From NCBI GenBank assembly GCA_965267185.1, contig OZ253937.1, positions 327,030 to 391,029 of the forward strand: a DNA stretch of 64,000 bases, given 5' to 3'. Positions 3,866-53,507 of this stretch are shown piece after piece. The DNA is from Alphaproteobacteria bacterium (GTDB taxonomy: Bacteria > Pseudomonadota > Alphaproteobacteria > UBA6615). Numbering within the stretch: the stretch's first letter is position 1; every line of letters starts with the position of its first letter. The notes under the pieces are model-generated. The model saw only the letters and a program-made list of their open reading frames with translations, did not search any database and was not told where the DNA came from. The position numbers and the translations under genes were made by a program.

Positions 3866-3941
3866 CTAAAGCGGCCACACGATCAGGATCAGCGGCACCG
3901 AGACCAGGACGATCAGCGCTTCGAGCGGCAGGCCCATGCGC
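3866..3941 (-). repeat. Orphan copy of the 3' end of the SLC13 permease gene (RMGLPLEALIVLVSVPLILIVWPL*)
   Basis: 72/76 nt identical to 5435-5510 by manual alignment; all 4 differences synonymous. Confidence 0.95.
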
Positions 3942-4013
3942 TACCTTGCGGTGATTGCCTGATTTTCCAAAGCCCGCCATAGTTGCTTTGAAACAATTGA
4001 GGGAAGCCACAGG

Positions 4014-5438
4014 ATGGAATGGCTGGTGACGTTCGTCCTGGACTTTTTCGACGTGTTCTTATCAACCATCGCTAGTCTTTGGTCGGTGGTGACGTGGGTA
4101 TGGTCTTCGTTGATCTGGCTCGGGTTCGTTGGCATCGTTCTTTGGGTTCTGAGTCACAACCAGTCTTACAAGACTTTACTTAGTTGGCTCACAGCGCGGG
4201 GCCGTAAGGTGCGATACGAACGGGCGCTTGATTGGAGCCTGACTCGTACTGACAACTTTTTTGGACCTGAATGGTTATGGAGAGCGTTTAGCCGCAGCTT
4301 ATCCCTGGCTTACATCTATCCTGCTCTCTTTCTGCTGGCGTCCTGGGTTGCCGGAATAAGGCTGACCTTTGCCGAAGATCCGTTTCTCGGTGTACAAACG
4401 ATTGGTGGGCTGGCGAGGTTCCTGATTGCCGCGGGGCTTATCGTAGCAACCGGGGTTATTGTTCTATTAGTTAGGAAAAATGAAACGATAGCTAGGTGGA
4501 TGTTGGAGCGGCTGTTTCGCCAACCACAACTGTCAAGCCGGATGCGTTTACTATCGGAAAGTTTCGTTTTAGCGCTCGCGCTCGTATTCGCGTTCGCTGT
4601 CTCGATCGCATTCGTACTCGTAGGCGCATCTGCAAGCGTAGGTGCGCCCGTAGCCGCAGTTTCGATGGTAGTTATAATCGTAGTCGTGATCACAGTCGGA
4701 GGCATAGTTCCAATCACAACAGCGATGGCCGCCATAGGTGTAGTCGGAGTCACAGCCACAACTATAGGGGCGTTCACAGACGCCGGCGAATTCATACGCG
4801 CGGTGTTAGTCCTATATTTAGTTTTGCCGATCACGAATGCGTTTTTCGATTGGCTGTCCTGGGGAGTGACGCGGCGGTTACTTCATCGTCTGAGGCAAGT
4901 TAATGGAATCCTCGCGGTCCTCGGTCACGTTGTCGCCGACACCGTTCTTGCGATCTTGTTTCTTGCCGGTTTGTCGGTGGTACTACCGTTTGTTGTCGAA
5001 ATCGCCAACGCAGCGTTTCACATACTCGCATTGTCACCACTGGAATGGCGGCCGATGTTGACCGCCGTTATCGAGCATCCATTTAGCGCAGGTATCATGG
5101 TTAGCGGTATGCTGGTCACAACACTAGTTCCCACCGCGATGCACCTCGGCATGGCATGTATTTCGCTATTTGTGCCTCATTTAGATGTCGAACGGACGGG
5201 AGGTTGGTACCCGCTCCGCGCGCACCTCCTGGAATCGGTAACGAACCCGGATGATGATCCCGACCATCTCCAGCGAGGTCATGTAGCAGTTTGGCTGTTT
5301 GGGGCGTTTGCGCTGTCTTGGGGAGTGTTGCTCGTGATTGGCGCTTTCGTCTACGCGCTTGTCTCTGCTTTTGGTCCCACCGGTGGAGAGCTTCTTATAA
5401 TTCTCGCCAATTTCGGCGCGTCTCTGGCAGGTGCTTAA
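4014..5438 (+). CDS. Hypothetical multi-pass membrane protein (visibly lower GC than flanks)
   Basis: 474 aa ORF with many hydrophobic segments and AT-ending codons; stop overlaps the permease stop (TTAA); lies between direct repeats. Confidence 0.7.
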   Translation: MEWLVTFVLDFFDVFLSTIASLWSVVTWVWSSLIWLGFVGIVLWVLSHNQSYKTLLSWLTARGRKVRYERALDWSLTRTDNFFGPEWLWRAFSRSLSLAYIYPALFLLASWVAGIRLTFAEDPFLGVQTIGGLARFLIAAGLIVATGVIVLLVRKNETIARWMLERLFRQPQLSSRMRLLSESFVLALALVFAFAVSIAFVLVGASASVGAPVAAVSMVVIIVVVITVGGIVPITTAMAAIGVVGVTATTIGAFTDAGEFIRAVLVLYLVLPITNAFFDWLSWGVTRRLLHRLRQVNGILAVLGHVVADTVLAILFLAGLSVVLPFVVEIANAAFHILALSPLEWRPMLTAVIEHPFSAGIMVSGMLVTTLVPTAMHLGMACISLFVPHLDVERTGGWYPLRAHLLESVTNPDDDPDHLQRGHVAVWLFGAFALSWGVLLVIGAFVYALVSAFGPTGGELLIILANFGASLAGA

Positions 5439-7201
5439 AGCGGCCAGACGATCAGTATCAGCGGCACCGAGACTAGGACGATCAGCGCTTCGAGCGGCAG
5501 GCCCATGCGCCAATAGTCGCCGAAGCGGTAGCCGCCGGGGCCCATCACTAGAACATTGTTTTGATGGCCGATGGGGGTGAGGAACGCGCACGATGCGCCG
5601 ATCGCCGTCGCCATCAGGAACGGATCGGAATTGACGCCCAATTGTTGGGCGATGGCGACCCCGATGGGCGCCATGACGATGGCGGTCGCTGCGTTGTTCA
5701 TCAGATCGGACAGGGTCATGGTGACGATCAGCAGCACGGCGAGCACGGCGAAGGTGGGCACCGCGCCCGCCAAGCCCACGATGGCTTCGGCGATCAACTG
5801 GGTGCCGCCGGTCGCCTGCAGTGCGCCGCCGAGGGGGATCATGGCGCCGAGCAAGACGATCACCGACCAGTCGATGGTCTCGTAGGCTTCGCGCGGCGTG
5901 ATCCGGTTGAGCAGAATGAGCGCGACGACCGCGCCGGAAAACGAGATATGCACCGGTGCGAGACCGAACGCTGTGGCCAGTACCGCGGCGGCAAAGAGCG
6001 CGACGGGCAGCCATATATGCCGGGGCCGGCGTAGCGATAGCCCGCGCTCGGCGAGGGGAAGGCACCCGAGATTGGCGACCACATCGGGCAACACGTCGGC
6101 TTCGCCTTGCAGCATAAGGACGTCGCCGGCCTGGAACCGTACGGTTGCCAGGCGCTCGCGCACCGGCTCACCTTGCCGTGCCAGGGCGATCAGGGCTGCG
6201 CCATAGCGCCGGCGCAGATGCAGCAGTTGCGCCGAGCGGCCTTCGATGCGGGCGCCGGGCAGCACCACGGCTTCGATCAAACCGATTTCGTCGGAGCGCA
6301 GATTTTCGTCGCTCAACTCCGCTTCGCCCGCAAGCTCCAGACCGTTGCCGGCAACCAACTTGTCGAGGACGGCGGGGTCGGTGCGGATTAGCAGGCTGTC
6401 GCCGGCACGCAATATGTGACCGCGCAGATGATGTAGGAAGCGGACATCGCCGCGGATCAACCCGACAATGATCGAGCGGTCGTCGGTGCGGTGTTCCAAC
6501 TCGGCGATCGAGACGCCGATCAAGTCCGAGTCCTCGGGAATGTGTGCCTCGGCAATGTAATCGCGCACTTCGAACAGGTCGGCGGCCGACTTGCGCCCGC
6601 TGCGGCCGCGTGGGATCAGCCGCCAACCGATGGTGACGACGAACAAGAGTCCGATCACGGCGATGGGCGCGCCAACCGGGGCGAAATCGAACAACTGAAA
6701 GGGTTCGCCGGCGACGTCGGCGCGGAAGGTGGCGATGATGATGTTGGGCGGGGTGCCGATCAAAGTGACCAGTCCGCCGAGGATCGAGCCGAACGATAGC
6801 GGCATCAGCAGCGCCGCCGGTTTGCCGCCGAGGCGCAACGCCAGCGGCATCAGCAGCGCCAGCGCGCCGACATTGTTCATGAACGCCGATAAAACCGCGC
6901 CGAGACCTGACAGGGTGCCGATCTGGCTGGTTTCGCTGCGCGCCGCGCGGGTTACCAAATTCGCGATATGGTCGAGGATGCCCGAGCTCTGGAGCGTCCG
7001 GCTGATCACCAGAACGGCGGCCACCGTGATTACCGCCGGATGGCCGAACCCGGCAAAAGCGTTGGTGGACGGCACCACGCCGACGCCGACAGCCACGATC
7101 AGCGCGGTGAACGCCACCACGTCGTAGCGCCAGCGGCCCCACAGGAAAAACACCATGGCAAGGCCGAGGATGGCGAAGATCAGTATCTGGTCGGCGGTCA
7201 T
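5435..7201 (-). CDS. SLC13/DASS-family permease with TrkA-C domains
   Basis: 588 aa; SAFMNN, GG..TLIGTPPN, central TrkA-C-like repeats, MNNAATA, FLTPIGHQ.N..V.GPGGYRF.DY. Confidence 0.9.
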   Translation of the reverse strand: MTADQILIFAILGLAMVFFLWGRWRYDVVAFTALIVAVGVGVVPSTNAFAGFGHPAVITVAAVLVISRTLQSSGILDHIANLVTRAARSETSQIGTLSGLGAVLSAFMNNVGALALLMPLALRLGGKPAALLMPLSFGSILGGLVTLIGTPPNIIIATFRADVAGEPFQLFDFAPVGAPIAVIGLLFVVTIGWRLIPRGRSGRKSAADLFEVRDYIAEAHIPEDSDLIGVSIAELEHRTDDRSIIVGLIRGDVRFLHHLRGHILRAGDSLLIRTDPAVLDKLVAGNGLELAGEAELSDENLRSDEIGLIEAVVLPGARIEGRSAQLLHLRRRYGAALIALARQGEPVRERLATVRFQAGDVLMLQGEADVLPDVVANLGCLPLAERGLSLRRPRHIWLPVALFAAAVLATAFGLAPVHISFSGAVVALILLNRITPREAYETIDWSVIVLLGAMIPLGGALQATGGTQLIAEAIVGLAGAVPTFAVLAVLLIVTMTLSDLMNNAATAIVMAPIGVAIAQQLGVNSDPFLMATAIGASCAFLTPIGHQNNVLVMGPGGYRFGDYWRMGLPLEALIVLVSVPLILIVWPL

Positions 7202-7215
7202 GGCGGGCAGCCTCT

Positions 7216-10762: not shown

Positions 10763-10795
10763 CTGAAACAGCGCGAAATTGGCGGTAACCGGCAG

Positions 10796-11587
10796 ATGTG
10801 CGGACGCTTCGGACTGCTTCATCCCTGGACCGATATGTTCCAGGCCTACTCGATTATTTCCTCGCCGCTGAACCTGCCGCGGCGGTTCAACATCGCGCCG
10901 ACTCAGCCCATCGTCGCGATCACCGGCGCGCCGGCCGCCGAATCGGGGGACAGGAGGCGCGGCACCATCGCGACCTTGTTCCGCTGGGGCCTGGTGCCGT
11001 CCTGGGCGAAGGATATTTCGGCCGGCGCCAAGACGATCAACGCGCGCGCCGAAACCGTTGCCGAGAAACCGTCCTTCCGCGCCGCCTTCCGCCGCCGGCG
11101 CTGCCTCATTCCCGCCAGCGGCTTCTACGAATGGCAGAGCCAGCCGAAAGGCCCCAAGCAGCCGTTCTGGATTACCGCCGCCGATGGCGGGCTGCTCACC
11201 TTCGCCGGATTGTGGGAGAGCTGGATGTCGCCCGACGGCGACGAGCTGCAAACCTGCACCATCGTCACCACCACCGCGAACGAGTCGCTGGCGCCGATTC
11301 ATCACCGCATGCCGGTGATCCTGGCGCCCGCCGATTTCGCGGCGTGGCTCGATGTCGGCGACGGCAAGAACGATTTCGGCACCGACCTATCGGTCGTGCA
11401 AAGCTTATTGCGCCCGGCGCCCGACGGCGCCACCACTGCCTGGCCGGTCTCGACCCGTGTCAACAACGTGCGCAACGACGATGAAAGCCTGGTGGAACCG
11501 GCCGAGCCTATCTCTTCTGATTCACAGACCGACGATGACGGCGATAAGGGCCCGCCCGACTCCGGTCAGGGCGATCTGTTTTCGTGA
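10796..11587 (+). CDS. SOS response-associated peptidase (SRAP/YedK/HMCES-like)
   Basis: MCGRF N-terminus (catalytic Cys2), RFNIAPTQ, WGLVP.W, INARAET, GFYEW, IHHRMPVIL. Confidence 0.95.
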   Translation: MCGRFGLLHPWTDMFQAYSIISSPLNLPRRFNIAPTQPIVAITGAPAAESGDRRRGTIATLFRWGLVPSWAKDISAGAKTINARAETVAEKPSFRAAFRRRRCLIPASGFYEWQSQPKGPKQPFWITAADGGLLTFAGLWESWMSPDGDELQTCTIVTTTANESLAPIHHRMPVILAPADFAAWLDVGDGKNDFGTDLSVVQSLLRPAPDGATTAWPVSTRVNNVRNDDESLVEPAEPISSDSQTDDDGDKGPPDSGQGDLFS

Positions 11588-11635
11588 TCGGGCCGGGAGA
11601 CTCGATTAAAGATCGAACGTCCAGTAATCACCCCT

Positions 11636-12838
11636 TTACAGCCGCTCCAAAATCTCTCGCCGCCGCGTGGCCGCTTCGGCTTCGGTGATCAGACCTTTTT
11701 CCAGAAGGTCTTGGATTTTCCTAAGCCGCGTTTCGGTATCGTTTCCGCCGGTTTGCTTAGCGTGCGGACGTTCTTGCGCTGGAGTTTTTGCGGCGAGCGC
11801 TTTGTTGGCGGAGGTGCCGACCTGGAATGTTATCGGCCTTCCGTTTCCGTCCGTGCCCTCGCCGTTTCCATCCTGCTCGCTATTCATCTGGTAGGTGCCC
11901 GAGGCGGTTAAGCCGCTATCGCAGCGCATGAACCAGATGCCGAAGGGAGGTTGGGCTGTGCGCCACTCACCGCCTTTGGTCTGCCATCTGCCGGTGCAGT
12001 CACCTACATCTCCTTGCAGCTTCGCCGAAATCTTTCCCTCCTGGCCAAGCGTAGAGGTCGCGAGTGTTCCGGACGCAAGCTCGCTGACGCCCTCCCAATT
12101 GAAGGCGACAGGGAAGGACACCGGCGTTCGGCTGCCGCCGGTGGCGCCACTTTGACGGGGTTTCGATGGGGTTTGACTCGATGTGGCGACAGTGCTTGCT
12201 AAAGTCGTTGGTTTTGGCAGATCGTAGCGTTTCAGTCTCGCGATCGGCCGACCGTCTTTCTTGATCTTGGAGAGATAATGTGCGCTCAGCGCGATGGCTT
12301 CGGTGGCGTTGCCGCCGACTGGAGCACAAGAGACCGAACGTGCGTAATAATCACCATATGTGCCAAAATATCCTTCGCTATAAAACTCCTCGTCGATATA
12401 GACGAGACCAGCGCACATTGCGCCGGTCGGAACCCAGCGATAGGTGACGATTATGAGGTTCTTTGAGATCTTTTCAGAACTTTGAATGTCGCAGTTTTGA
12501 ACGTTTTTGGGGCTGCAGATCAGCCGGGACGCAGCATCTTCGTTGAATTCTGCAGATTGGTAATGCGATCCGGAGGGAAGTTTGTCATAGATGAGGGCAG
12601 AGTTATCGAAGCGCCAATACTCTCGGTAGCTATTGTTGCCGATAAATCCGGCGCTAACGCTAACTAACCGCCTGCCTTCAAGTGGAATTTGCAGCAACGC
12701 ATCAGTGGTATCGATCGTATCGTACCGATACTTGCCCAAATGAGCGCCACCAGTTGACTTGATCTCCACTTCCGCGGCGGATGCCGAGAGGCTCAACGCG
12801 GCCAAAATTAGTGCTGCTATGCTCCAACGAAGGATCAT
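11636..12838 (-). CDS. Exported hypothetical protein with C-terminal SHOCT-like domain
   Basis: ATG 12838 with GGGAGAG RBS, signal peptide (ALSLSASAA), C-terminal RLRKIQDLLEKGLITEAE...RREIL; lower GC. Confidence 0.7.
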   Translation of the reverse strand: MILRWSIAALILAALSLSASAAEVEIKSTGGAHLGKYRYDTIDTTDALLQIPLEGRRLVSVSAGFIGNNSYREYWRFDNSALIYDKLPSGSHYQSAEFNEDAASRLICSPKNVQNCDIQSSEKISKNLIIVTYRWVPTGAMCAGLVYIDEEFYSEGYFGTYGDYYARSVSCAPVGGNATEAIALSAHYLSKIKKDGRPIARLKRYDLPKPTTLASTVATSSQTPSKPRQSGATGGSRTPVSFPVAFNWEGVSELASGTLATSTLGQEGKISAKLQGDVGDCTGRWQTKGGEWRTAQPPFGIWFMRCDSGLTASGTYQMNSEQDGNGEGTDGNGRPITFQVGTSANKALAAKTPAQERPHAKQTGGNDTETRLRKIQDLLEKGLITEAEAATRRREILERL

Positions 12839-12977
12839 TTTTCGCTCTCCCGTACTGGTTGATAGAAAGCGTAGCACCAATCCGCAATAGGCGAAAACCG
12901 GCGCTGGAACCTGCAGATTTCGGGCGCCGTTAACCAAAACAGCGGTGCCTCACCGGCAAAAATGGTGGCGGAAGGGC

Positions 12978-16387: not shown

Positions 16388-18211
<1,824 letters not shown>

Positions 18212-18292
18212 GGGCGTTTCCCTTTTTGCTTTTGCTCGCCCGTGGCAAGCAATTATGCTGTGCTGCGGCGACGAAACGATAGGCGAGATAGC

Positions 18293-18733
18293 GTGCTAAC
18301 CACGGTTTCCGACATTTCGGTGAACCAGACCATCTGGCGGCTAAACGAAACCGACACCGCGTATGACGCAGCTGTCTTGATGACCGAGCGGGATATCTCC
18401 GCTGTGCTTATCTACGACAAAGACGAACGACTGGTGGGGATTGTTACGGAACGCGACATCGCCCGCCGCGTCGTTGCGGAGGGCCGCGATCCCAAATCAA
18501 CGGGCGTACGCGACATGATGACGCGCGACGTCGAGACAATAGAGCCTGGCGAGAGTAACAACCGGGCGCTACGCATTATGCAAGCGCGGCGAATTCGTCA
18601 TTTGCCGATTGTCGAAGAGGGACGTGTGGTCGGGATCGTATCGATGCGAGACTTAAGACGGTCCCGGGCTCAGACTTTCCCTCGCAATGTTGGTCGGGTT
18701 TTACGTCGAACATTTCGCAAACGAGCGGCGTGA
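18293..18733 (+). CDS. Stand-alone CBS-pair protein
   Basis: LVGIVTERD...MTRDV, RIRHLPIVE.GRVVGIVS.RDL; ORF open from 18242. Confidence 0.85.
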   Translation: MLTTVSDISVNQTIWRLNETDTAYDAAVLMTERDISAVLIYDKDERLVGIVTERDIARRVVAEGRDPKSTGVRDMMTRDVETIEPGESNNRALRIMQARRIRHLPIVEEGRVVGIVSMRDLRRSRAQTFPRNVGRVLRRTFRKRAA

Positions 18734-18813
18734 GTTTGGTAATCGTCAGCGCGAGACCGTTGCGAGAGAACGTTCATAGCACTGGGGCGGCGGGTAATAT
18801 CTGCACTTTCGTG

Positions 18814-19851
18814 CTATTCGGAGTCGTCGTAGCCACCATCGTCATCACCTCCGCCGGCGTCGCTTCCGTATCTTTGCAATTCATGGAATGGTACACGTTC
18901 CTCGATCGATTGAGCAGTTAGATTGAGCAGGCGCTCGGGCCGCAGAAATGTTAAGCGGACGCCTTTCCCAATAGGCAATTCTGGGACGGAGTCGTTGCCG
19001 TCAATTTTATCTTCATCACGCAGCGAGTGCAGTTCACGCTCGAATAATTTCGTTTGTTCGGGCAGTAGGCCGATATCGATGACGGTGGCACTTTCATGGC
19101 TACCGAACCAGTCGGTGCTGGATTGAACGGTATTCGCGAAGGCGAGACCCCGCGGTGTTAGATCGTGCACAACGAAGACATCGAGCTTTGGTTGTCTTCG
19201 TAAGTTTTGGAACAGATGACGCTGGTCTCCGGTAGGGATATCGCATCCACCCATTACAACGCAGTTGTTTTCGAGGTGAAACTCATGGACCAAATAAAAG
19301 CGTGCATATTCGGGATTCTCGCAGAGCAGTAGGCGGGCTGCGGGCTGCCCATCCAATACAACGGTGGTATCGCCTTCGCCCGGTGCGGACACGGATTCGC
19401 TTATCTTATGGGTCGGCGGGTTGATCCGCTCGTAGGCTCGTATCGCGTGGATAACATTGCGCGGGTTGGTATGGGGCCGCCCAAGTGCAACTGCGGTAAG
19501 CCCGGCTACGAGTGCGATAGCAACAAACAACACAAATATGTTGAAACCAGTGAATACGAAAACGATCAGGGAAACGGCAATCGTTCCCATTACTCCGAGT
19601 GCACTCGCGATCCTTTTAGGATCATTTGGCGGCGATGACCGACGGCGAACTTCGTAAAAAAGGTGATCTTCGAGATAGTAGTAGGCCTTGTTCTTGGAGA
19701 CCCCGTCGATGCAACGCTTGATAAAAAAATCCGTTGCTCCGTCGGTTTGTGGACTTAGTGCCACCCGGTGTCCGCAATTGGGACATTGGCCCAGCGAATA
19801 CTTGCCTGTGTCCGGCTCTTTCGCCTTGTGATCGCAGTTCACACAACGCAA
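18814..19851 (-). CDS. Hypothetical protein: CxxC...CxxC zinc ribbon, two TM helices, C-terminal TOPRIM-like domain (inferred)
   Basis: TTG start at 19851 (GGGGA RBS) gives MRCVNC...CPNC; hydrophobic hairpin; LLLCE...VVHDLTPRG...IDIGLLP spacing resembles TopoVI-A/Spo11-type TOPRIM. Confidence 0.6.
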   Translation of the reverse strand: MRCVNCDHKAKEPDTGKYSLGQCPNCGHRVALSPQTDGATDFFIKRCIDGVSKNKAYYYLEDHLFYEVRRRSSPPNDPKRIASALGVMGTIAVSLIVFVFTGFNIFVLFVAIALVAGLTAVALGRPHTNPRNVIHAIRAYERINPPTHKISESVSAPGEGDTTVVLDGQPAARLLLCENPEYARFYLVHEFHLENNCVVMGGCDIPTGDQRHLFQNLRRQPKLDVFVVHDLTPRGLAFANTVQSSTDWFGSHESATVIDIGLLPEQTKLFERELHSLRDEDKIDGNDSVPELPIGKGVRLTFLRPERLLNLTAQSIEERVPFHELQRYGSDAGGGDDDGGYDDSE

Positions 19852-19959
19852 CGATGAAATCCCCTGGTCCAAGCCGAAAATACACAATGAACTCACTGTG
19901 GAAGGGTCTATCCTAACCCATGGTGACTTACGACGAACTGTAATCTTGGATTGCCTTAA

Positions 19960-21825: not shown

Positions 21826-21842
21826 GCGCAAAAATGCATGTT

Positions 21843-21899
21843 GACACCTATGTGGACCAGCCGCGCAACCTGGCGAAAAGCGTCACCGTGGAGTAGGGG
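21843..21899 (+). repeat. Orphan copy 1 of glmS 3' end (DTYVDQPRNLAKSVTVE*)
   Basis: GACCAGCCGCGCAACCTGGCGAAAAGC (21855-21881) identical to glmS 18170-18196; ends GAG TAG GGG as in glmS. Confidence 0.95.
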
Positions 21900-21931
21900 A
21901 GCCTGGCGGCTCCGCCTGCCCGGAAAGCGCT

Positions 21932-22369: not shown

Positions 22370-22412
22370 GTTGGCTTCTCTCTCGGTGTTCGGATTTGGT
22401 TTTCGGATTTTT

Positions 22413-23348: not shown

Positions 23349-23360
23349 GTCGTTCTCCGG

Positions 23361-25606: not shown

Positions 25607-25674
25607 GGAAATTCTCCTTTGCCGTTTCGATGCACCGGCAATCACGATGACTGTCGGGTTACGTAATGCTGCGG

Positions 25675-25691
25675 TGCAACATACGTGCCAA
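25675..25691 (-). promoter_or_regulatory. Sigma-54 (-24/-12) promoter of the cyn operon
   Basis: TTGGCACGTATGTTGCA on the minus strand, 68 bp upstream of the substrate-binding protein ATG. Confidence 0.85.
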
Positions 25692-31841: not shown

Positions 31842-32081
31842 AGTCCGCTTCCCCCCATATGTTTCAGCGGCACCCACACGATGCGGTATTCGCGTGCGTT
31901 GTGGAAGGGGGCTAACGCTTTCTTGATGGACGCCAGGACCTGTTCCTCGCCGGAATGGTTCGTCCATTAGGTGCGCAGAGGCGCCATAACGCCGTTATTT
32001 GATGCGATATGGCAGGATTTTGGTGCTTTTTTGAGATTCGCGGTATCTGGGTCCGGTGCGGTGACATTTTCCCGCCCGCAC

Positions 32082-37436: not shown

Positions 37437-37605
37437 GTGGAACGGTCTCCGGTGGATATGCACGGCGCGAGCGGCCATGCGCATGAGAAGCCAGCACCTT
37501 GCGCCGTGCCGCCGCTGCTGGCAATGGCACGCACTCTCCCCTGGGCGCTACGATGGCGAGATAATAAATAAGATTGCGCTATGCACGTCGCTGGTTGAGG
37601 TCTGC

Positions 37606-40009: not shown

Positions 40010-41599
40010 CTACCCTAGCGCCGGTTCAGGGACGGGCGTCCACCATTTGTCGAGTTCCAAATCCTCGGCAATCACGTTGGCGGCGTTATAGCCGGCGGCG
40101 CCGCTGATCGAGCCGCCCACATGATTGCCTGACCCCGCCATGTAGACGCCTTCGACTGGCGTGCGGTAGTGGGATAGCTCCGGCGTCGGGCGGTTGTAGC
40201 CGACCTGGTCGAGCGTATACGCCCCGACATGGTGGCTGCCGCGGATCATGTTGATGCAGCTGCGCTCGGTATCGCGCGGGGTGAACAGAAACGTGCCGAG
40301 CACGTTGTCCGCATCCAGATTGGGCGCGTAGCTGCGCCACACTTCCAGCAATCGCTCGGTGAATTCGGGCTTCCGCGTATCCCAAGCCTCCGCGCCGCCG
40401 TCTTTCAGCTCATAGGGCACGAACGGCCACCAGAAAGCGCTGTGCTTGCCAGCGGGGGCGTAGGAGGGATCGACAAGCGAATTGCACGCGCCGTTGCCCA
40501 TGAGGAACGGCGGGAAATCGCCCCGGTTGGTGGCCTGGAAATTCTCCTCCAATTGCTGCTCGTCGGCGACCCCGAAGAAAATGTTGAAGGTGCGATTGAT
40601 GTCCGGGTCGAACGCCGCCGCGGCATATTCGGGCGGTTCGTTGAGCGCGAGGTGCAGCGTGCACAAAGCGTGCGGCGAGGCTTTGAAGTTGCGCACCTTT
40701 TCCGACAACTCCGCGTCAAAGGCGTCGTCGCCCAGCATGCGTAGGGTCTGCGGCGGATCGACCGTGCTGACGACGGCTTGCGTGGCCTCGATGGTGTCGC
40801 CGTTTTCGAGGCGGATGCCGGTGACCTTGCCGTTCTTGTGGCGGATCTCGGAGACATGATCGCCCTGGACGATTTCGCCGCCGAAAGACCGGAACCGCTC
40901 GGCAAGAATGTCGGCGAGACGCTCCGATCCTCCTCTCACCAGGGAGAAACGGTCCATCCGCGAGTGCACGCGCGGGAAGAACGCGCCCGTGCCGGGGTCG
41001 TTCTCCAGCGCGATGACATGGAACCAAAGCTTGAAGAGGGTGCGGACGTGGGCCTCTTCGAAATTTTGGTCCACGGCCTCGTACATCGTCATCTGGTTGT
41101 AGGATTTGATCTCCTCGCCCAGGTCGCCGTTGAGACGCGCCGCGATTTCGTCGGGCGGCAGGGGGCGGTTGAACATCGACGAGGTGATGTAGTCGCGCGT
41201 GCCCAGCGTGAATTTTTCGTAGACCTCCCAATACTTATCGCTGTCTTTTCGCGAGAACCGGGCGATCGAGGCCGCAGTCTTCTCCGGGTCGCGGTGGATA
41301 CAAATGGCCGTTCCGTCGGGGAAGGCGATCCCGTGCTGCACGTCGGGGTAGATCAGTTCAAGCCCGAGGCCGGGAAGATCCAGGTCGGCGTAGAAGGGCG
41401 TCAGCTCGAGGCCCATCATGAAGTTGGCGTGCAGATTGTGCTGGAAGCCCGGCAGGGTCGATTCCTCGGTCAAGAGCCCGCCGCCAACGCGGTCGTTTCG
41501 TTCGACCACCAGAACCTTCATGCCGGCCTTGGCCAAATAACTCCCGCAAATCAGCCCGTTATGGCCGCTGCCGATGATAATTGTATCGAACGTCTCCAC
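40010..41599 (-). CDS. FAD-dependent oxidoreductase, phytoene-dehydrogenase-like family
   Basis: IIGSGHNGL...YLAKAG..VLVVE, YRTPVEGVY.AGSG.H.GG.ISGA.G.NAA. Confidence 0.85.
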   Translation of the reverse strand: METFDTIIIGSGHNGLICGSYLAKAGMKVLVVERNDRVGGGLLTEESTLPGFQHNLHANFMMGLELTPFYADLDLPGLGLELIYPDVQHGIAFPDGTAICIHRDPEKTAASIARFSRKDSDKYWEVYEKFTLGTRDYITSSMFNRPLPPDEIAARLNGDLGEEIKSYNQMTMYEAVDQNFEEAHVRTLFKLWFHVIALENDPGTGAFFPRVHSRMDRFSLVRGGSERLADILAERFRSFGGEIVQGDHVSEIRHKNGKVTGIRLENGDTIEATQAVVSTVDPPQTLRMLGDDAFDAELSEKVRNFKASPHALCTLHLALNEPPEYAAAAFDPDINRTFNIFFGVADEQQLEENFQATNRGDFPPFLMGNGACNSLVDPSYAPAGKHSAFWWPFVPYELKDGGAEAWDTRKPEFTERLLEVWRSYAPNLDADNVLGTFLFTPRDTERSCINMIRGSHHVGAYTLDQVGYNRPTPELSHYRTPVEGVYMAGSGNHVGGSISGAAGYNAANVIAEDLELDKWWTPVPEPALG

Positions 41600-43236: not shown

Positions 43237-43356
43237 ATTCCGGCATCCCTGGATCGATACCCCCAACGGTCTTACTTCGCCCTCAGGTGCTAGCGAGTCG
43301 CGGGCTTAGCGCCTAACATTTACGAGGGTTTTACAAGGTTTTACGGGGGGTTCTTG

Positions 43357-45690
43357 ATGGGTGAGTTTTCAATCGGTCAATCGGTATTGCGGCGCGAGGA
43401 CCCGCGCCTGCTCCAGGGCCGCGGCCGCTATCTCGACGATCTGAACCTCGACCGCCAGCTTTGGGCGGTCGTGCTTCGTTCGCCGCATGCGCACGCCGAT
43501 ATACGCGGTATCGATACCGCGGCGGCATCGGCGGCGCCGGGCGTGCATGCCGTGCTGACCGGGGCGGATTACCGCGCTGACGGCATGGGGGTGGTGCCGT
43601 GCATGGGCGCTTACACCCACCGCGATGGCGGGCCTATGTACATCCCCGACCGGCCGGCGCTCGCCGTCGGGCGGGTGCGTCACATCGGCTATCCGGTCGC
43701 GCTTGTCATTGCCGATCATGAGGCGCAGGCGCGCGACGCGGCGGAGCTGATCGAAGTCGATTATGCGCCCTTGCCGGCGGTGACCTCGTGCTTCGAGGCG
43801 TTCCAGCCGGGCGCGCCGCAGCTCTATAACGATTGTCCGAATAACGAGTCCTATCTCTATGAAGCGGGCGACCGGGCCGCCACCGAGGCGGCGTTTGCCG
43901 ACGCCGACCATATTGTCGAGCAGCGGCTGGTGATCAACCGGGTGACGGCCAACGCGCTCGAACCACGCGGTGTCATCGGCGAATACGATCCCGGTAGCGA
44001 ACGCTTCACCCTGCATTGCGGGTTCCAGCGGCCCTGGCTGTTCCGCCGCTCACTCGCCGAACAGTCGTTCAAGGTGCCGGAGGCGAAAATCCGTCTCGTC
44101 ACCGGCGATATCGGCGGCAGCTACGGTTTGCGCGGGTCGATCTATCCCGAGATGGTGCTCATGCCGTGGGCGGCGAAGCGGGTGGGCCGGCCGGTCAAAT
44201 GGGTCGGCGACCGCAGCGAGAGCCACCTCAGCGACGACGACGGCCGCGACAACATCGTCGACGCCGCGCTTGCCTTCGACGCCGACGGCGCCTTCCGCGC
44301 GGTGAAGATCCGTAGCTGGGGCAATCTCGGCGCGTTTGTTTCCTACCGGGGCGCCGCCCCGCCCGCCGTTCATATCGGCTCGGCCGCCGGCGTCTACACC
44401 ACCCCGGTGGCGCATGCGGAAATCTCCGGCATGCTCACCAACACCCACTGCACGTCGCCCTATCGCGGCGCCGGCCGGCCCGAGGCCGCCTACATGATCG
44501 AGCGGTTAGTCGAGATGGCGGCCGACGAGCTGGGCATGGACCCGGCCGAGCTGCGGCGCAAGAACATCATTCCGCCCGAGGCCATGCCGTACAAAACGGC
44601 GCTGACCTACACCTACGATAGCGGCCGGTTCGAAGAGAATATGGACCGCGCCATGGGACTGGCCGACTGGGCGGGCTTTGCGGCGCGGCGCGACGAAGCG
44701 GCGGCGCGCGGCAAATTGCGCGGCATCGGCATGTCGAACACCATCGAGTTTGCCGCCGACAACACGTTGGAGACGGCGGAAATCCGTTTCGATCCCCAAG
44801 GCGATTTGACGTTCGTTGCCTCCTCAATCACCCACGGTCAGGGCCACGCGACGACGCAGACGCAGATCCTGGTCGATTTGCTCGGCGTCGATCCCGAGCG
44901 GGTCAATGTACTGCAGGGCGATACCGACCTGGCGGTCTTCGGCATGGGCACCGGCGGCTCGCGCACCACGACGATGACCAGCGCGGCGATGACGGTCGCC
45001 GCTGGCAAGATTATTGCCAAGGCCAAGCGGCTGGCGGCGCATCTGCTCGAAGCGGCAGAAGCCGATATCGACTTCGCCGATGGCCAGTTCGTCGTCGCCG
45101 GCACCGACCGTTCGGTGGAGATTCACGAGGTCGCCCAAGCGGCCTACAAGCTGCCCGACCTGCCGGGTGATTTCGAGCCCGGTCTGTTCGAAACCGGCAC
45201 CTGGAAGGCCGAGACCGGCAACTTCCCCAATGGCTGTCACATCTGCGAGGTCGAGATCGATCCCGATACCGGCGTCACCGAGATCGTCGGCTACTGGGTG
45301 GTCGACGATGTGGGCACGGTGATCAATCCGATGCTGGTCAAGGGCCAGCTCATGGGCGGCATCGCCCAGGGCATGGGACAGGTGCTGATGGAAGACAAGG
45401 CCTACGATCCGCAAACCGGCCAGCTCATCGCCGGCTCCTTCATGGACTACTGCATGCCGCGGGCCGACGATTTCTGCACCGTCGTATTCGAAGAGAACGA
45501 GGTGCCGACGCCGACTAACCCGCTCGGCGTCAAGGGCGCGGGCGAGGCGGGCACGGTGGGCTCGCTCTCGGCGGGGGTCAACGCCATCGTCGATGCGCTG
45601 TCGGTCTACGGCATCCGCCATATGGATACGCCGTGCACGCCGCTGAAAGTGTGGCAGGCGATCCGCGACGCGGAAACGGGGCAGGGGTAA
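43357..45690 (+). CDS. Second xanthine dehydrogenase-family molybdopterin-binding large subunit
   Basis: R.EDPRLLQG.G, RSPHAHA, PYRGAGR, GQ..GGIAQG.GQ.L, KGAGEAG; paralogue of 793-3129. Confidence 0.9.
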   Translation: MGEFSIGQSVLRREDPRLLQGRGRYLDDLNLDRQLWAVVLRSPHAHADIRGIDTAAASAAPGVHAVLTGADYRADGMGVVPCMGAYTHRDGGPMYIPDRPALAVGRVRHIGYPVALVIADHEAQARDAAELIEVDYAPLPAVTSCFEAFQPGAPQLYNDCPNNESYLYEAGDRAATEAAFADADHIVEQRLVINRVTANALEPRGVIGEYDPGSERFTLHCGFQRPWLFRRSLAEQSFKVPEAKIRLVTGDIGGSYGLRGSIYPEMVLMPWAAKRVGRPVKWVGDRSESHLSDDDGRDNIVDAALAFDADGAFRAVKIRSWGNLGAFVSYRGAAPPAVHIGSAAGVYTTPVAHAEISGMLTNTHCTSPYRGAGRPEAAYMIERLVEMAADELGMDPAELRRKNIIPPEAMPYKTALTYTYDSGRFEENMDRAMGLADWAGFAARRDEAAARGKLRGIGMSNTIEFAADNTLETAEIRFDPQGDLTFVASSITHGQGHATTQTQILVDLLGVDPERVNVLQGDTDLAVFGMGTGGSRTTTMTSAAMTVAAGKIIAKAKRLAAHLLEAAEADIDFADGQFVVAGTDRSVEIHEVAQAAYKLPDLPGDFEPGLFETGTWKAETGNFPNGCHICEVEIDPDTGVTEIVGYWVVDDVGTVINPMLVKGQLMGGIAQGMGQVLMEDKAYDPQTGQLIAGSFMDYCMPRADDFCTVVFEENEVPTPTNPLGVKGAGEAGTVGSLSAGVNAIVDALSVYGIRHMDTPCTPLKVWQAIRDAETGQG

Positions 45691-48899: not shown

Positions 48900-48976
48900 A
48901 GCGCCTATTCTGCCGGGGCGGGGCGGACCACTGCGCGGCGGCCGAGAGTGGTCTCGTTGCCCTGGTCGGGATCGTG
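48900..48976 (-). repeat. Orphan diverged copy of the MFS gene 3' end (HDPDQGNETTLGRRAVVRPAPAE*)
   Basis: 64/77 nt identical to 50294-50370, no indels, reading frame and stop conserved. Confidence 0.92.
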
Positions 48977-49015
48977 AGAGGTGGGGCTTGTCCACCTGCC
49001 TATGCGACGCCCCAT

Positions 49016-49136
49016 CGTCATGCTCGGGCTTGACCGGGGCATCCATGGTCGTGCTGGGTTCCAGTCCTTGTGCGTGTCTCAAGTGAAGACTGTGGGACAG
49101 AGGGATGGATACTCGCGTCGGAGGGCGAGTATGACG
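49016..49136. repeat. CGTC-tagged REP inverted doublet
   Basis: CGTCATGCTCGGGCTTGACCGGGGCATCCAT (49016-49046) and inverted ATGGATACTCGCGTCGGAGGGCGAGTATGACG (49105-49136). Confidence 0.8.
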
Positions 49137-49173
49137 GTTGGCAGTGCGGCGGGCGAGAGCGACCGGGGGCCCT

Positions 49174-50043
49174 TCACGCCGCAAACAGTTCCTCGATCGG
49201 CATTCGATCGGCATGCACTTTTGGTCGAGAAAGATAGAACTCGGCTAACAAATGGCCCTGATCTTCCATGTCGGTTGGATCGACACCGATCTCGCACAGT
49301 TGTTCGAGCACTTGGGCTTGCTCTTCCTGGGTCGCAAACTCACGCTGGACGAACGTGGTATCCTCGAGTTTCTCGGTCACATAACCCCACCGGTCCAATG
49401 TCTGTGCGATGACGTCGAACGGGAACATGCGCAACACGAAATTCGCCAACCAGGGTGATTTGCCTTGGGTTATAGCCGGCAATAAATTGTCGAAGGTTTT
49501 TTCCGTGACATAGCCGACGCAGCCTGTCGACATCACCAAATCGACAGAGGCGAGATCTTCCTTGACGGGTTCGGGCAGAAACTCCGTCTCGAGATCGATC
49601 GCGATGCCGTCATCGATAAGGCCCACCTCTTCGGCGAAACCGATTGCGTTCTCCGCTTGATCGAGACCTATCATTTCAATGTTTTCAGGTTCTTCGAGAT
49701 GGCCGAAAAAGCGCTGGTCATATTTGACGACTTCCCCAGGGGTTGCCGAAGCGAGCCGGTCCTGATTCCAATGCTGATAGAGCTCTGACAGTGAAAGATC
49801 ATGTTTGAGAAGGGCGGCATTGACCCCGTAGGAGCAGCCGATATCGAGGACGCAAAGCGGTTCCTGCCGGCAGCGGCGCAATGCTGAAATCAATCTCTTG
49901 AATACCGGCTTGGCCGCGCCTGGAATGCTGTAGTTAAGCTTCCTGAGTTCGCGAAAATAAGCCCTTGGATCCGGCTCATCGTAGATATAATCCATGTTGG
50001 CTTTGGCTTCGTTGATTGCATCGAAGTCGCCGTCGCCGGTCAT
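49174..50043 (-). CDS. Class I SAM-dependent methyltransferase-like protein
   Basis: VLDIGCSYG motif I, IGLDQAENAI, STGCVGY. Confidence 0.75.
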   Translation of the reverse strand: MTGDGDFDAINEAKANMDYIYDEPDPRAYFRELRKLNYSIPGAAKPVFKRLISALRRCRQEPLCVLDIGCSYGVNAALLKHDLSLSELYQHWNQDRLASATPGEVVKYDQRFFGHLEEPENIEMIGLDQAENAIGFAEEVGLIDDGIAIDLETEFLPEPVKEDLASVDLVMSTGCVGYVTEKTFDNLLPAITQGKSPWLANFVLRMFPFDVIAQTLDRWGYVTEKLEDTTFVQREFATQEEQAQVLEQLCEIGVDPTDMEDQGHLLAEFYLSRPKVHADRMPIEELFAA

Positions 50044-50298
50044 AAGTTCTCTCCATTACCTCGGGTTTGGTTATCATCCGCAACACGTTCCTCTCGGCGG
50101 CGGGACTCGAAAATCGAACCCACCACTCCACATGTATGCAGTGGTGGAGCACCAGGCGGTTGCTATGGATGATCGTATTTTACGATAGCCCGGAGAGTAA
50201 CAGAGCAGGACAGCAAATTGAACCGCTGGCCTTGCAACTATTTGGCGTTTGTCGGTTCCAATTGCGGCGATCAAACTCGAATGACGCTGCACAAGCGC

Positions 50299-51507
50299 CT
50301 ATTCCGCCGGGGCGGGGCGGGCGACCGCGCGGCGGCTCCATACGGTCTCGTTGCCTTGGTCGGGGTCGTGGGGGATGATCTGAGCCAGCGCCAAGCTCAC
50401 CGCCGCGAGAGCGGCACCGGCATAAAACACCAAGCTCGGGTTGACCAGCCAGATCAACCCGAAAGCCGCTGGGACCACGACCGCGGCGATATGGTTGATC
50501 GAGAACGAGATGCCGGCGGTCGGCGCGATATCGCGCGGATCGGCGATCTTGCCGAAATAGGTGTTCAGCGCCAGCGCCATGGCGAAAAAGATATGGTCGA
50601 GGATATAGAGCCCGCTGGCTATCCACACATTCTCGACCAGCGCGTAGGCGATGAAGACGCCGATCAGGCCGGCATATTCAAATGTCAGCGCGCGGCGCTC
50701 GCCGAAATGGGCGACGAAGCGGCCAATCTTCGGCGCTAGAAACGTGTTGATCAAATGATTGATCAACATCAGCAGTGTCAGATTGGCCGCCGAGAGGCCG
50801 AATTTTTCGACCATCAGGAAGACGGCGAACACAGTAAAAATTTGCCGCCGCGCGCCGTTGATGAAGGTGAGCAGATAGAACAGCCAATAGCGCTTGCGCA
50901 GGAACAGTTCGCGGCGCTGCTCGGTCATCACTTCATAGCGCGGGAACGCGACCCAGGCGATCGCCGCCAAGCCGATCGTAACGCCGCCGGCGAGGGCGTA
51001 GAGCACCGCGAAGTCGAGCTGCAGAAACTGCAGCCCGGCCCAAACCAGCAGGAAGGCGACAATCGAGGCGACGCTGCCGGCGGCGAGCATGCGGCCGAAC
51101 ACGATGGGCGCGCGTTCCCGGCTCGACCATTGCAGCGCCAGGCTTTGCGACGCCGCTTCGAAATAGTGGAAGCCGATCGACATGATCATGGTCGTCACCA
51201 GCAAGCCGAAAAAGCTGGGGAACAGGCCGGTCAGCGCCACCCCGGCGCCCAGGAACACCAGCGCGAGGATGGCGATGGTCTGTTCGCGCATGATGAACAG
51301 CAGCGCCACGATAGTGAAGGCGAGGAAGCCGGGGATCTCGCGGATCGACTGCAGCATGCCGATATCGGCGCCGTCGAAAGCGGCGCGCTCGACGGCGAAA
51401 TTATTGATCAGCGCCATCCAGGTCGACGACCCAATGGGGTAGGCCGCCGCCATTAGCAGCAGCAAGATTTCCGGGCGGCGCCAGCCGGTGTAATCTTCCA
51501 TTTTCAT
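50299..51507 (-). CDS. MFS transporter
   Basis: 402 aa, ~12 TM helices; LQSIREIPGFLAF, INGARRQIFTVFA, FSINHIAAV. Confidence 0.9.
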   Translation of the reverse strand: MKMEDYTGWRRPEILLLLMAAAYPIGSSTWMALINNFAVERAAFDGADIGMLQSIREIPGFLAFTIVALLFIMREQTIAILALVFLGAGVALTGLFPSFFGLLVTTMIMSIGFHYFEAASQSLALQWSSRERAPIVFGRMLAAGSVASIVAFLLVWAGLQFLQLDFAVLYALAGGVTIGLAAIAWVAFPRYEVMTEQRRELFLRKRYWLFYLLTFINGARRQIFTVFAVFLMVEKFGLSAANLTLLMLINHLINTFLAPKIGRFVAHFGERRALTFEYAGLIGVFIAYALVENVWIASGLYILDHIFFAMALALNTYFGKIADPRDIAPTAGISFSINHIAAVVVPAAFGLIWLVNPSLVFYAGAALAAVSLALAQIIPHDPDQGNETVWSRRAVARPAPAE

Positions 51508-51648
51508 GGGGAGACCATCCTAACCCCTATCTGTTAACGGGCGCGGGCGCGCCGGTCCATCGAAATCGCCGCCGGGATTTCGCCTGCACCGATTGACGCC
51601 CCCAGCGGCGGGACTTAGGGTCGCCGCGCCTTACATTATGTCGTGCTC

Positions 51649-53319
51649 ATGACCGATTCCTTGACCATTGCCCTGGCGCAGCTCAACCCGACCGTCGGCG
51701 ATATCGACGGCAATGTGGCGCGTATCCGCGCCGCCCGTTTAGCGGCCGCCGCCGGCGGCGCCGACCTGGTGGTCGGCACCGAACTGTGCGTCTCGGGCTA
51801 TCCGCCGGAAGATCTGATCCTCAAGAATGCCTTCCTTGAGGCGGCGCGCGCCGGCGTCGAGACGCTGGCGGCGGAGACCGCCGATGGCGGGCCGGGATTA
51901 ATCGTCGGCGCGCCGTGGCTCGACGATGATGGCAAGCGCTACAACGCCGCCTTGGTGCTCGATGGCGGCAAGATCGCGACCCGGCGCGACAAGTACGACC
52001 TGCCCAATTACGGCGTGTTCGACGAGAAGCGGGTGTTCGATGCGGGCGCGCCGCCGGGCCCGGTGAACTACCGCGGCGTACGCTTGGGCCTGGCTGTCTG
52101 TGAAGACATGTGGACGCCCGACGTGTCGGAAACGCTCCAGGAATCCGGCGCCGAGCTTTTGCTGTTTATCAACGGCAGCCCCTATGAGCGCGACAAGGTG
52201 GATGTGCGGCTCAACCTGGCGGTGGCCCGGGTGACCGAGACCGGCTTGCCGCTAATCTATGTGAACCAAGTGGGCGGGCAGGACGAACTGGTGTTCGACG
52301 GTGGCTCGTTTGTGCTCAACGCCGACCGCAAGATGGCCGCCACGTCGCCCCAGTTCGTCGAGAACGTGTCGCTCACGCGCTGGCAGCGCGGGGAGGGCGG
52401 CGCGCCGTGGTCCTGCACCGAGGGCGAGCTGACCAGCCAGATCGAGGGCAGCGAGCGTATCTACCAGGCGATGGTTCTGGGCCTGCGCGACTATGTGAAC
52501 AAGAACGGCTTCCCGGGCGTCGTGCTCGGCCTGTCGGGTGGTATCGATTCCGGCATCACCGCCGTCGTTGCGGTGGATGCGCTGGGGCCGGAGCGGGTGC
52601 ATTGCGTGATGATGCCGTCGCCGTTCACCAGCCAGGAAAGTCTCGACGACGCCCAGGAATTGGCCGACCGGCTGGAGGTACGCCTCGACAGCGTCGCCAT
52701 CGAGCCGGCGATGAACGCCTTCGACGATATGCTCAAGCAGGCCTTCAACGAGCCGTCATCCGGCGTCACCAAGGAAAACATCCAGAGCCGGGCACGCGGG
52801 CTCACCCTGATGGCGATCAGCAACACCACCGGCGCCATGCTGGTCACCACCGGCAACAAGTCGGAAATGTCGGTCGGTTACGCCACGATCTACGGCGACA
52901 TGGCGGGCGGTTACTCGGTGATCAAGGATGTCTACAAGACCGATGTGTTCAAACTCTGCCGCTGGCGTAACGAACACTATCCCACGGGCGTGTTGGGCCC
53001 CGCCGGCGATGTGATCCCCGAGCGCATCATCACCAAGCCGCCCTCGGCGGAGCTGCGGCCTGACCAGAAGGACGAGGATTCGCTGCCGCCCTATGACGAA
53101 CTCGACGCGATCCTGCACGGCTTGATCGAGGAAGATTTGGGGGCCGACGATCTGGTTGGCCGTGGTCATGACGTGGACACGGTGCAGCGCATCTGGCGGC
53201 TTCTCGAGATGTCCGAATATAAGCGCCGCCAGGCGCCTCCGGGGGTGAAGCTGACCAGCCGCGCGTTCGGCCGCGACCGCCGCTACCCGATTACCAATGC
53301 GTTCAAGGGTAAGGCCTAA
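51649..53319 (+). CDS. nadE: Glutamine-dependent NAD+ synthetase
   Basis: Nitrilase domain (EL...GYPPEDL, K..LPNYGVFDE.R, CED.W) plus GLSGGIDS, ENIQSR.RG, TGNKSE, PPSAELRP.Q.D. Confidence 0.96.
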   Translation: MTDSLTIALAQLNPTVGDIDGNVARIRAARLAAAAGGADLVVGTELCVSGYPPEDLILKNAFLEAARAGVETLAAETADGGPGLIVGAPWLDDDGKRYNAALVLDGGKIATRRDKYDLPNYGVFDEKRVFDAGAPPGPVNYRGVRLGLAVCEDMWTPDVSETLQESGAELLLFINGSPYERDKVDVRLNLAVARVTETGLPLIYVNQVGGQDELVFDGGSFVLNADRKMAATSPQFVENVSLTRWQRGEGGAPWSCTEGELTSQIEGSERIYQAMVLGLRDYVNKNGFPGVVLGLSGGIDSGITAVVAVDALGPERVHCVMMPSPFTSQESLDDAQELADRLEVRLDSVAIEPAMNAFDDMLKQAFNEPSSGVTKENIQSRARGLTLMAISNTTGAMLVTTGNKSEMSVGYATIYGDMAGGYSVIKDVYKTDVFKLCRWRNEHYPTGVLGPAGDVIPERIITKPPSAELRPDQKDEDSLPPYDELDAILHGLIEEDLGADDLVGRGHDVDTVQRIWRLLEMSEYKRRQAPPGVKLTSRAFGRDRRYPITNAFKGKA

Positions 53320-53338
53320 CGTCTTGTCCTTGGTTTAA

Positions 53339-53461
53339 CCCTCTCCCTGAGGGAGAGGGTGGCGAGCGCATGCGAGCCGGGTGAGGGTTTAGGAACGGTT
53401 GGAAAACATCCTGGATATATCTTACCCCCTCACCCCAACCCCTCTCCCCATGGGAGAGGGG
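53339..53461. repeat. REP inverted doublet (CCCTCTCCC...GGGAGAGGG...GGGTGAGGG family)
   Basis: Unit 1 CCCTCTCCCTGAGGGAGAGGG...GGGTGAGGG; unit 2 CCCTCACCCC AA CCCCTCTCCCCATGGGAGAGGGG in inverted orientation. Confidence 0.82.
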
Positions 53462-53465
53462 CTTT

Positions 53466-53507
53466 CGCCGCTATCCGATCACCAATGCATTCAAGGGCAA
53501 GGCGTAG
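53466..53507 (+). repeat. Orphan copy of nadE 3' end (RRYPITNAFKGKA*)
   Basis: 36/42 nt identical to 53278-53319; all 6 differences at synonymous third positions (including TAA/TAG). Confidence 0.93.

Follow-up and report, generated by a model that had tools for sequence, protein, structure and literature searches.

Several described systems add DNA at the 3′ end of a conserved gene. Tn7 inserts about 25 bp beyond the stop codon of glmS, with a 5-bp duplication, and carries tnsABCD and terminal repeats. The ccr-less pseudo-SCC (staphylococcal cassette chromosome) elements at rlmH are a case similar to that of cis-mobilizable elements (CIMEs). CIMEs, and the tandem accretion of islands of the integrative and conjugative or integrative and mobilizable element (ICE/IME) type at the 3′ end of a target gene, were described by Pavlovic et al. 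2004 (reviewed in PMC5704250); such islands depend on a dedicated integrase with a single specificity and still show their att cores and remnants of the element. A further class, insertion with long target duplication, was defined on restriction-modification cargo; its direct repeats frequently extend across the stop site (Furuta, Abe & Kobayashi 2010, PMC2853133). For the C-terminal displacement and orphan arrays at rhs, contact-dependent inhibition (CDI) and type VI secretion system (T6SS) effector-immunity loci, homology-facilitated illegitimate recombination (HFIR) has been proposed (Jackson et al. 2009, as cited in Kirchberger et al. 2017, PMC5361080). Here we describe a 64-kb stretch of contig OZ253937.1 (hereafter, the window), a chromosome segment of an uncultured alphaproteobacterium with 61% GC and a parent contig of 4.33 Mb, in which the 3′ ends of four genes recur, in frame and with their stop codons, as five orphan tails 0.19–7.9 kb further downstream. 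The intact and orphan copies of a tail are alleles from two lineages, and the DNA that they bracket may have been imported without a dedicated recombinase.

Tail pairs, alleles and cargo

The four genes encode an SLC13/CitMHS-type permease, GlmS (with two orphan tails), a transporter of the major facilitator superfamily (MFS) and the NAD synthetase NadE (Table 1). A repeat search and codon alignment recovered, at the same positions, all five orphan tails that an earlier note on this DNA had reported. The order is the same in 5/5 cases: intact conserved gene, cargo, orphan tail. The homology sets in abruptly 13–27 codons ahead of the stop codon and ends 0–5 nt past it in all five pairs, giving repeat lengths of 42–84 nt at copy spacings of 188, 1394, 1569, 3685 and 4180 nt. 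At glmS, the start of the repeat differs between the two events (−13 versus about −27 codons), both cassettes begin exactly at +3 after the stop codon, and the most distal orphan, tail 3, is also the most decayed. The longest identical runs measure 32–35 nt in the SLC13 and glmS pairs, 15 nt in the MFS pair and 8 nt in the nadE pair. The earlier note spoke of four core genes, a description that does not extend to the MFS gene: it sits inside a block missing from the closest relatives and is therefore not clearly core.

The permease, glmS tail 2 and nadE pairs differ at 12 positions in 159 nt, and 12/12 of these differences are silent, two of them being TAA/TAG exchanges. In the permease pair, the orphan has CTG/ATC/GTG/TAG and the intact copy CTA/ATA/GTC/TAA; the MFS pair shows 5 silent differences together with 8 differing nt within 4 replaced codons. 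All orphan stop codons are kept. Under a null model of local duplication, in which the orphan drifts and the intact copy takes silent changes only, about 41% of the differences are expected to be silent, and the probability of 12/12 is 2.6e-5 with half of the change on the selected copy and 1e-7 with all of it on the orphan. Because 12/12 differences are silent, the tail copies are alleles from two lineages that diverged almost wholly as working gene ends, and one of them came in with the cargo. This agrees with the earlier note, which had taken the orphans for orthologous alleles rather than decayed copies and the SLC13 and nadE tails for synonymous-only variants; codon alignment of the latter gave only silent or stop-to-stop changes. 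The import events are recent, the orphans having yet to decay. Furthermore, the three glmS copies share synonymous states unseen in any relative (e.g., GCGAAAAGC); the donors were therefore close kin. In the permease gene, the rare CTA and ATA codons number 11, where the other core genes would predict 2.6 (P=9e-5); they occur along the whole gene, whose orphan tail has the usual CTG/ATC. The whole permease gene, or a large part of it, may thus be a foreign allele imported with the cargo.

Genes in the cargo have a GC content of 52–58% and a GC3 (GC at third codon positions) of 0.56–0.73, compared with 62–66% (about 65%) and 0.83–0.85 for the four host genes. Given this low GC relative to the host genes and its absence from the nearest relatives, the cargo is foreign DNA. 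The five distal joints all lie in non-coding DNA, and every cargo gene is whole. The single gene of cargo 1, whose stop codon overlaps that of the permease by 2 nt, encodes a protein with zero matches in Pfam, NCBIfam or PADLOC and with two homologues, both distant, among 5.8 billion proteins. The three-gene module of cargo A, which has zero PADLOC matches, recurs in the same gene order and at 30–55% identity in Pirellulaceae, Terriglobia and several other Alphaproteobacteria (loci L161–L165 and L170), never adjoining glmS. Plasmids of Methylobacterium and Bosea carry cynS-ABC operons with about 70% nucleotide identity to cargo B. The REP (repetitive extragenic palindromic) doublet that makes up the nadE bracket is the usual content behind a gene and not a mobile element. 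In 320 loci of other genomes, no cargo was found natively behind glmS.

Two observations on the cargo led to candidates that we did not retain. At L165, the cargo A-type module lies between direct repeats of 1557 bp (4539–6095 and 10778–12333) that are 99.9% identical, carry a 514-aa open reading frame without a Pfam match and have IS21 istA/istB genes alongside. These repeats were considered as a Campbell-type scar and dropped in view of the IS21 genes around them; copies of an insertion sequence (IS), or a composite IS arrangement, are more likely. A plasmid origin of the cassettes was also set aside: the matches were limited to the distant (about 70%) cynS operons and to the glmS tails of plasmid-borne glmS genes.

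Table 1 Coordinates of the tail pairs, host genes and cargo in the window
Feature	Position	Strand	Description
Orphan permease tail	3866-3941	-	24 codons + stop; 71/75 identical; 4 differences, all third-position or stop TAA/TAG
Cargo 1	3942-5434	+	single gene 4014-5438 (474 aa, about 12 transmembrane-like segments by hydropathy); GC 53%
SLC13/CitMHS-type permease	5435-7201	-	TrkA-C domains; Pfam CitMHS 1.9e-81; intact tail copy 5435-5510
glmS	16388-18211	+	Pfam SIS and GATase; orthologues 83% aa; intact tail copy about 18131-18214
Cargo A	18215-21854	+	three-gene module between glmS and tail 2
CBS-pair protein gene (cargo A)	18242-18733	+	
Zinc-ribbon/two-transmembrane-segment protein gene (cargo A)	18814-19896	-	360 aa
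Asparagine-synthase-like PP-loop ATPase gene (cargo A)	19960-21825	+	asparagine-synthase/QueC-like
Orphan glmS tail 2	21855-21899	+	last 13 codons + stop + GGG; 43/45 identical; 2 silent differences
Cargo B	21900-25995	-	cyanate-utilisation operon (Pfam)
cynS (cargo B)	21932-22543	-	
ABC ATPase, permease and NrtA/CmpA-type binding protein (cargo B)	22413-25858	-	
Orphan glmS tail 3	25996-26079	+	about 26 codons + stop; one-codon gap; replacements in 5′ part (conserved LLAYH stretch)
Orphan MFS tail	48900-48976	-	23 codons + stop + 5 nt; 64/77 identical; frame kept
Cargo 3	48977-50293	-	289-aa methyltransferase-like gene 49174-50043 (GC 53%), then REP-like doublet adjoining orphan tail
MFS transporter	50299-51507	-	Pfam MFS_1; intact tail copy 50294-50370
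nadE	51643-53319	+	glutamine-dependent NAD synthetase; Pfam NAD_synthase and CN_hydrolase; orthologues 81% aa; intact tail copy 53278-53319
nadE bracket content	53320-53465	.	inverted pair of REP hairpins only, 146 nt; CCCTCTCCC-N3-GGGAGAGGG at 53338-53360 and 53439-53461
Orphan nadE tail	53466-53507	+	13 codons + stop; 36/42 identical; 6 differences, all silent or stop-to-stop

Among public genomes, metagenome-assembled genomes (MAGs) of Rhodospirillaceae type come nearest, with 80–83% protein identity. Three genome-contig scans and one metagenome scan yielded no species-level relatives, same-species empty sites or donors (best protein identity 83%), exact look-ups of the cargo proteins and the glmS protein returned zero records, and the source organism was detected in one sample only. 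Relatives at 66–83% protein identity have a single tail and lack the cargo. A second copy of the glmS tail was absent from 153/153 other glmS loci, and scans of relatives showed no tail repeat at roughly 80 nadE loci or at their six closest SLC13 loci.

We compared the tail, head and middle of each gene, as 42-nt ungapped segments, with the 10 kb on either side, in the window and in 335 related loci, and excluded paralogous gene ends and generic repeats from the counts. Orphan tails were found for 4/47 genes in the window and for 3/3189 genes across the related loci (Fisher P=1.3e-6). If the events were independent, about 0.04 comparable windows would be expected among the 250,000 screened. 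A protein-level scan with the last and first 50 residues of 28 window genes returned the five tails only and zero orphan heads.

The three background cases came from loci L256, L088 and L305. At L256 (5060–5300), a locus whose SLC13 is 68% identical, the gene after the permease has a 48-nt tail plus a REP unit, and a tandem copy of both follows 74 nt downstream. The copies differ at 5 positions (one replacement, TAA/TAG) and make up a minor duplication resembling the nadE case. The tail-plus-REP scar is therefore not confined to the source genome, since L256 has a related duplication. At L088, a complete alphaproteobacterial MAG, an orphan tail of about 20 codons (16050 and 19224) lies 3.2 kb downstream of a 2.4-kb gene.

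Searches with Pfam, NCBIfam and PADLOC identified no integrase, transposase or other recombinase in the cargo or in the remaining genes of the window, and no remnants of element genes were found in the cassettes. PADLOC also pointed to no hidden defence function in the cargo. An inverted-repeat check for terminal inverted repeats of the cassettes was likewise negative, which bears out the corresponding statement of the earlier note. The sole tRNA gene of the window has no relation to the brackets. By k-mer comparison, no motif was common to the cargo flanks of the five junctions or to the four tails: zero k-mers were common to at least 3/5 distal flanks, and one 6-mer was common to three proximal flanks, which is within chance (null mean 1.4). 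Hairpins occur at the distal joints of MFS and nadE only, where the REPs lie; as a general rule for distal joints they were thus ruled out.

Routes to a bracketed gene end

The reading that we favour, with confidence somewhat short of even, is that HFIR produced the brackets one by one, each marking an independent and fairly recent import of DNA from a donor closely related to the host; a dedicated recombinase would be unnecessary. The incoming DNA would carry the donor allele of a conserved gene (at least its 3′ end and stop codon) and whatever follows it, be it an operon, a single gene or a REP doublet. On one side it would undergo ordinary homologous pairing within the conserved gene, and its far end, without homology, would be joined illegitimately inside the last 13–27 codons of the resident gene. 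The gene would then end in the donor tail, and the resident tail would be displaced behind the cargo as an in-frame orphan. Repeat events at glmS would stack two cassettes, with the oldest orphan furthest away. We infer three of these parts, namely the homologous crossover upstream in the gene, the illegitimate distal joint and the direction, with the orphan as the resident copy. Any homologous exchange must lie upstream in the gene because the identical runs of nadE and MFS are too short for a RecA exchange within the tail.

HFIR covers all five cases by one process, including the trivial cargo at nadE. The decayed and most distal glmS tail 3 fits what serial displacement predicts, the variation of repeat lengths (13–27 codons, differing between the two glmS events) supports it, and the permease-wide CTA/ATA habit, set against the usual codons of the orphan, is consistent with it. 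The earlier note had named homology-facilitated capture of donor DNA with its own C-terminus among its candidate mechanisms, and this part fits best, given the REP-only nadE bracket, the 8- and 15-nt runs and the lack of a junction motif. Its proposal of a general mechanism is not established as a new one. The layout matches published classes, and a tail repeat is lacking at about half of the foreign inserts in the window.

One of those classes is C-terminal displacement. As summarised in Kirchberger et al. 2017 (PMC5361080), a conserved upstream gene part anchors the incoming DNA, a new 3′ end with linked genes is added, the old 3′ end is shifted downstream, and repetition leads to arrays with the oldest piece furthest away, all with no integrase; on the HFIR reading, the same would hold for the window. 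The glmS array shows such a gradient, with a codon gap and LLAYH replacements in distal tail 3 versus two silent changes in tail 2. The two differ in what is gained: in the loci covered by that account, the new 3′ end encodes another toxin domain, subject to diversifying selection, whereas here the incoming tail encodes the same end of a housekeeping protein (glmS, nadE) and the gain is unrelated cargo.

Several points weigh against HFIR. GC3 and rare-codon profiles of the intact genes revealed no donor-tract boundary, and in the two collections scanned there was no donor genome and no same-species empty site (best relatives ≤83% protein identity); demonstrating an illegitimate joint requires the donor sequence. 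The distal joints are intergenic and the cargo genes whole, whereas random illegitimate joints would mostly hit coding DNA. The proximal boundaries, 0–5 nt past the stop codon and at +3 in both glmS cassettes, look more "designed" than random import. Finally, HFIR is rare experimentally, orders of magnitude below homologous recombination (PMC5361080), and five events in 50 kb would therefore need a hotspot or strong selection.

Some of these points would be accommodated by site-specific integration, which we consider unlikely overall. The recombinases would be encoded elsewhere or since lost, and accretion would be CIME-like, with an attP carrying the 3′ end of the target and new elements entering the functional tail. 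Such a process could account for repeats that end at the stop codon (+0 to +5) in 5/5 cases and at +3 for both glmS events, as if only the coding part needs rebuilding, and for joints that are all intergenic and spare every cargo gene; at SLC13 and glmS, a crossover core could reside in the identical blocks of 32–35 nt on the 5′ side of the repeat. On the other hand, four unrelated targets require several recombinases and none is encoded in the 64 kb, there are neither element-gene remnants nor a common motif in junctions or tails, the repeat lengths differ between the two glmS events, and the nadE "element" would be a mere 146-nt REP doublet. Moreover, the 153 glmS, roughly 80 nadE and six closest SLC13 loci of relatives, besides having no tail repeat, show no neighbouring integrase-bearing element.

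CIME accretion is the site-specific counterpart of the tail-bracket layout (PMC5704250). It differs in its single-specificity integrase, att cores and remnants, where the window has four unrelated targets, no remnants, no common motif, a variable repeat length and one cargo-less case. Element-gene remnants and identical att boundaries at one site were not found, the glmS repeats starting at −13 versus about −27 codons and the nadE insert being a REP doublet. As with Tn7 at attTn7, foreign DNA has gathered immediately behind glmS in the window, and the landmark is the conserved 3′ coding end of that gene. A Tn7-like element was nevertheless ruled out, as there are no tns-type or other transposase genes and no terminal inverted repeats, and the foreign DNA starts 3 nt past the glmS stop codon. 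An integron was likewise ruled out by the lack of an integrase in the window and of any k-mer common to at least 3/5 distal flanks.

A recombinase-free mobile cassette is less probable still. Here a unit of gene tail plus cargo would loop out as a circle, through recombination of its two tail copies, and re-enter a relative via a single RecA-dependent (Campbell-type) crossover at the orthologous tail, which yields exactly the order tail, cargo, tail. The identical runs of 32–35 nt at SLC13 and glmS are near the RecA minimum, and the fixed +3 right end of both glmS tail copies suits a portable tail segment. Against this stand the nadE and MFS runs of just 8 and 15 nt, the implausibility of a 188-bp nadE circle and the illegitimate joint that the first formation of the unit would still require. 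In addition, neither circle nor empty-site joints were present in assembled short-read sequences (unitigs, described below) at MFS or nadE, the SLC13 and glmS forms not being resolvable by unitigs. A broader version of this idea, to which we give an equally small chance, is that conserved genes lend their 3′ ends as portable homology arms to cassettes that move without a recombinase, much like an integron operated by the general recombination of the host. If true, the units, once formed, would loop out, travel as DNA (e.g., by transformation or a gene transfer agent) and re-enter related genomes at the orthologous gene; housekeeping genes would come to have cassettes accumulated behind them, and the source lineage or region would be a hotspot of unusual activity.

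We regard it as slightly less probable again that a second, full-length gene copy was imported. A gene–cargo–gene tandem, with both copies functional for a time, would have lost most of the downstream copy by later deletion. The silent-only divergence and the in-frame tails with stop codons would both be explained by a formerly functional copy. Two events per site would be required, though, and the deletion must have spared just 13–27 codons five times; no longer remnants or intermediates were seen in the window or in relatives.

An in-situ "long target duplication" at insertion, with the copies diverging afterwards, is very unlikely. Its layout does agree with the descriptive features of the class of Furuta et al. 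2010 (PMC2853133): inserts of less than 20 kb without a mobility gene (by Pfam, NCBIfam and PADLOC), flanked by direct repeats of more than 30 bp (here 42–84 nt) and of variable length, often across the stop site, with the target gene left intact. The cargo differs, being restriction-modification genes there and metabolic, membrane or uncharacterised genes or a REP doublet here. Furthermore, that class is read as target duplication, but here the copies are different alleles. Local duplication followed by drift was rejected on the silent-only result in three tails (12/12, P=2.6e-5, or 1e-7 if all change is on the orphan) and on the retention of every orphan stop codon.

Independent read evidence consisted of short-read Logan unitigs from five runs (X1–X4 and X11) of the same single sample, which match every cassette and every orphan without mismatch. 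Least credible of all is an assembly artefact, in which the assembler chained strain variants downstream of a common gene end. The sample is a metagenome, unitigs break in the 32–36-nt identical cores at glmS and SLC13, so that the order there rests on the original assembly, and unitig depth varies 35–127x along the window; yet what precedes each orphan within single unitigs is cargo rather than gene body, one unitig runs with zero mismatches through the MFS orphan, the cargo and the MFS gene into nadE, both nadE junctions are covered, and the depth of the glmS cassettes equals that of their flanks in the five runs.

Perfectly matching unitigs show a roughly threefold range of mean k-mer depth along the window, from about 39 at 1–1.8 kb stepwise up to 127 at 22–26 kb, then down through 101, 84 and 61 to 38 at 52.6–55.9 kb, and up again to 90 at 62–64 kb. 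Possible sources of this variation are co-occurring strains that share segments, or coverage bias. At position 18209, one contig of run X11 agrees with the end of glmS as far as the stop codon and from there diverges into different DNA (GATCCGCGACGG...); it could stem from the conserved glmS end of another organism or from a strain in which something else lies downstream of glmS.

Gene gain along the window and its significance

Beyond the brackets, the whole stretch is a hotspot of gene gain in the source lineage, because the distance between glmS and nadE, 33 kb in the window, is about 7 kb in the two closest MAGs (L001 and L002). In both MAGs, a homologue of the gene at 36627–37484 sits directly behind glmS. 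The slot behind the permease is occupied by another gene of about 400 aa in three relatives (L256, L258 and L269) and by yet another gene in two more (L257 and L259). By our count, roughly eleven blocks are present in the window and not in relatives, and about half of them have a tail repeat; examples without one are 11636–12937, 26.1–36.6 kb, 40010–41599 and 57.6–59.1 kb.

Some of these blocks have features of their own. The low-GC insert at 11636–12937 lies between SRAP and methyladenine-glycosylase-like (Adenine_glyco) genes and holds a gene for a 433-aa secreted-type protein (55% GC). The stretch at 57797–59037, with 47.5% GC, holds a cytochrome c gene and a DUF2927 gene, and likewise has no tail repeat. 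At 27284–31967, in a block missing from relatives, four tandem co-directional paralogues of about 366–408 aa have 65–74% DNA identity and a C-terminal LuxR/GerE helix-turn-helix. Elsewhere in the window, two paralogous 778-aa molybdopterin hydroxylase large subunits (XDH/CoxL type; 793–3129 and 43354–45690) are encoded 40 kb apart and have N-termini that are 67% identical; small-subunit genes were not seen adjoining either.

Tail-bracket gene gain is a known but little-studied route. To this, the window adds the occurrence of five events at four genes within 50 kb of a free-living-type alphaproteobacterium, the combination of housekeeping targets with metabolic cargo, and clear evidence that the "duplication" consists of two alleles. 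Gene gain is mostly explained by elements that encode an integrase or transposase themselves, or by double crossovers that fall cleanly in the flanking genes. On the HFIR reading, the window points to a third route acting repeatedly at housekeeping genes, in which one-sided homology and an illegitimate joint leave a duplicated tail. Such a route can import whole operons, as for cyanate use, or a widespread three-gene module, and its scar is easy to search for. Pairs of donor and resident tails would offer a handle on how closely the donor is related and on the sequence and age of the events. Should the pattern be common genome-wide or across lineages, orphan tails may become a general marker of integrase-free horizontal transfer and of recombination hotspots.

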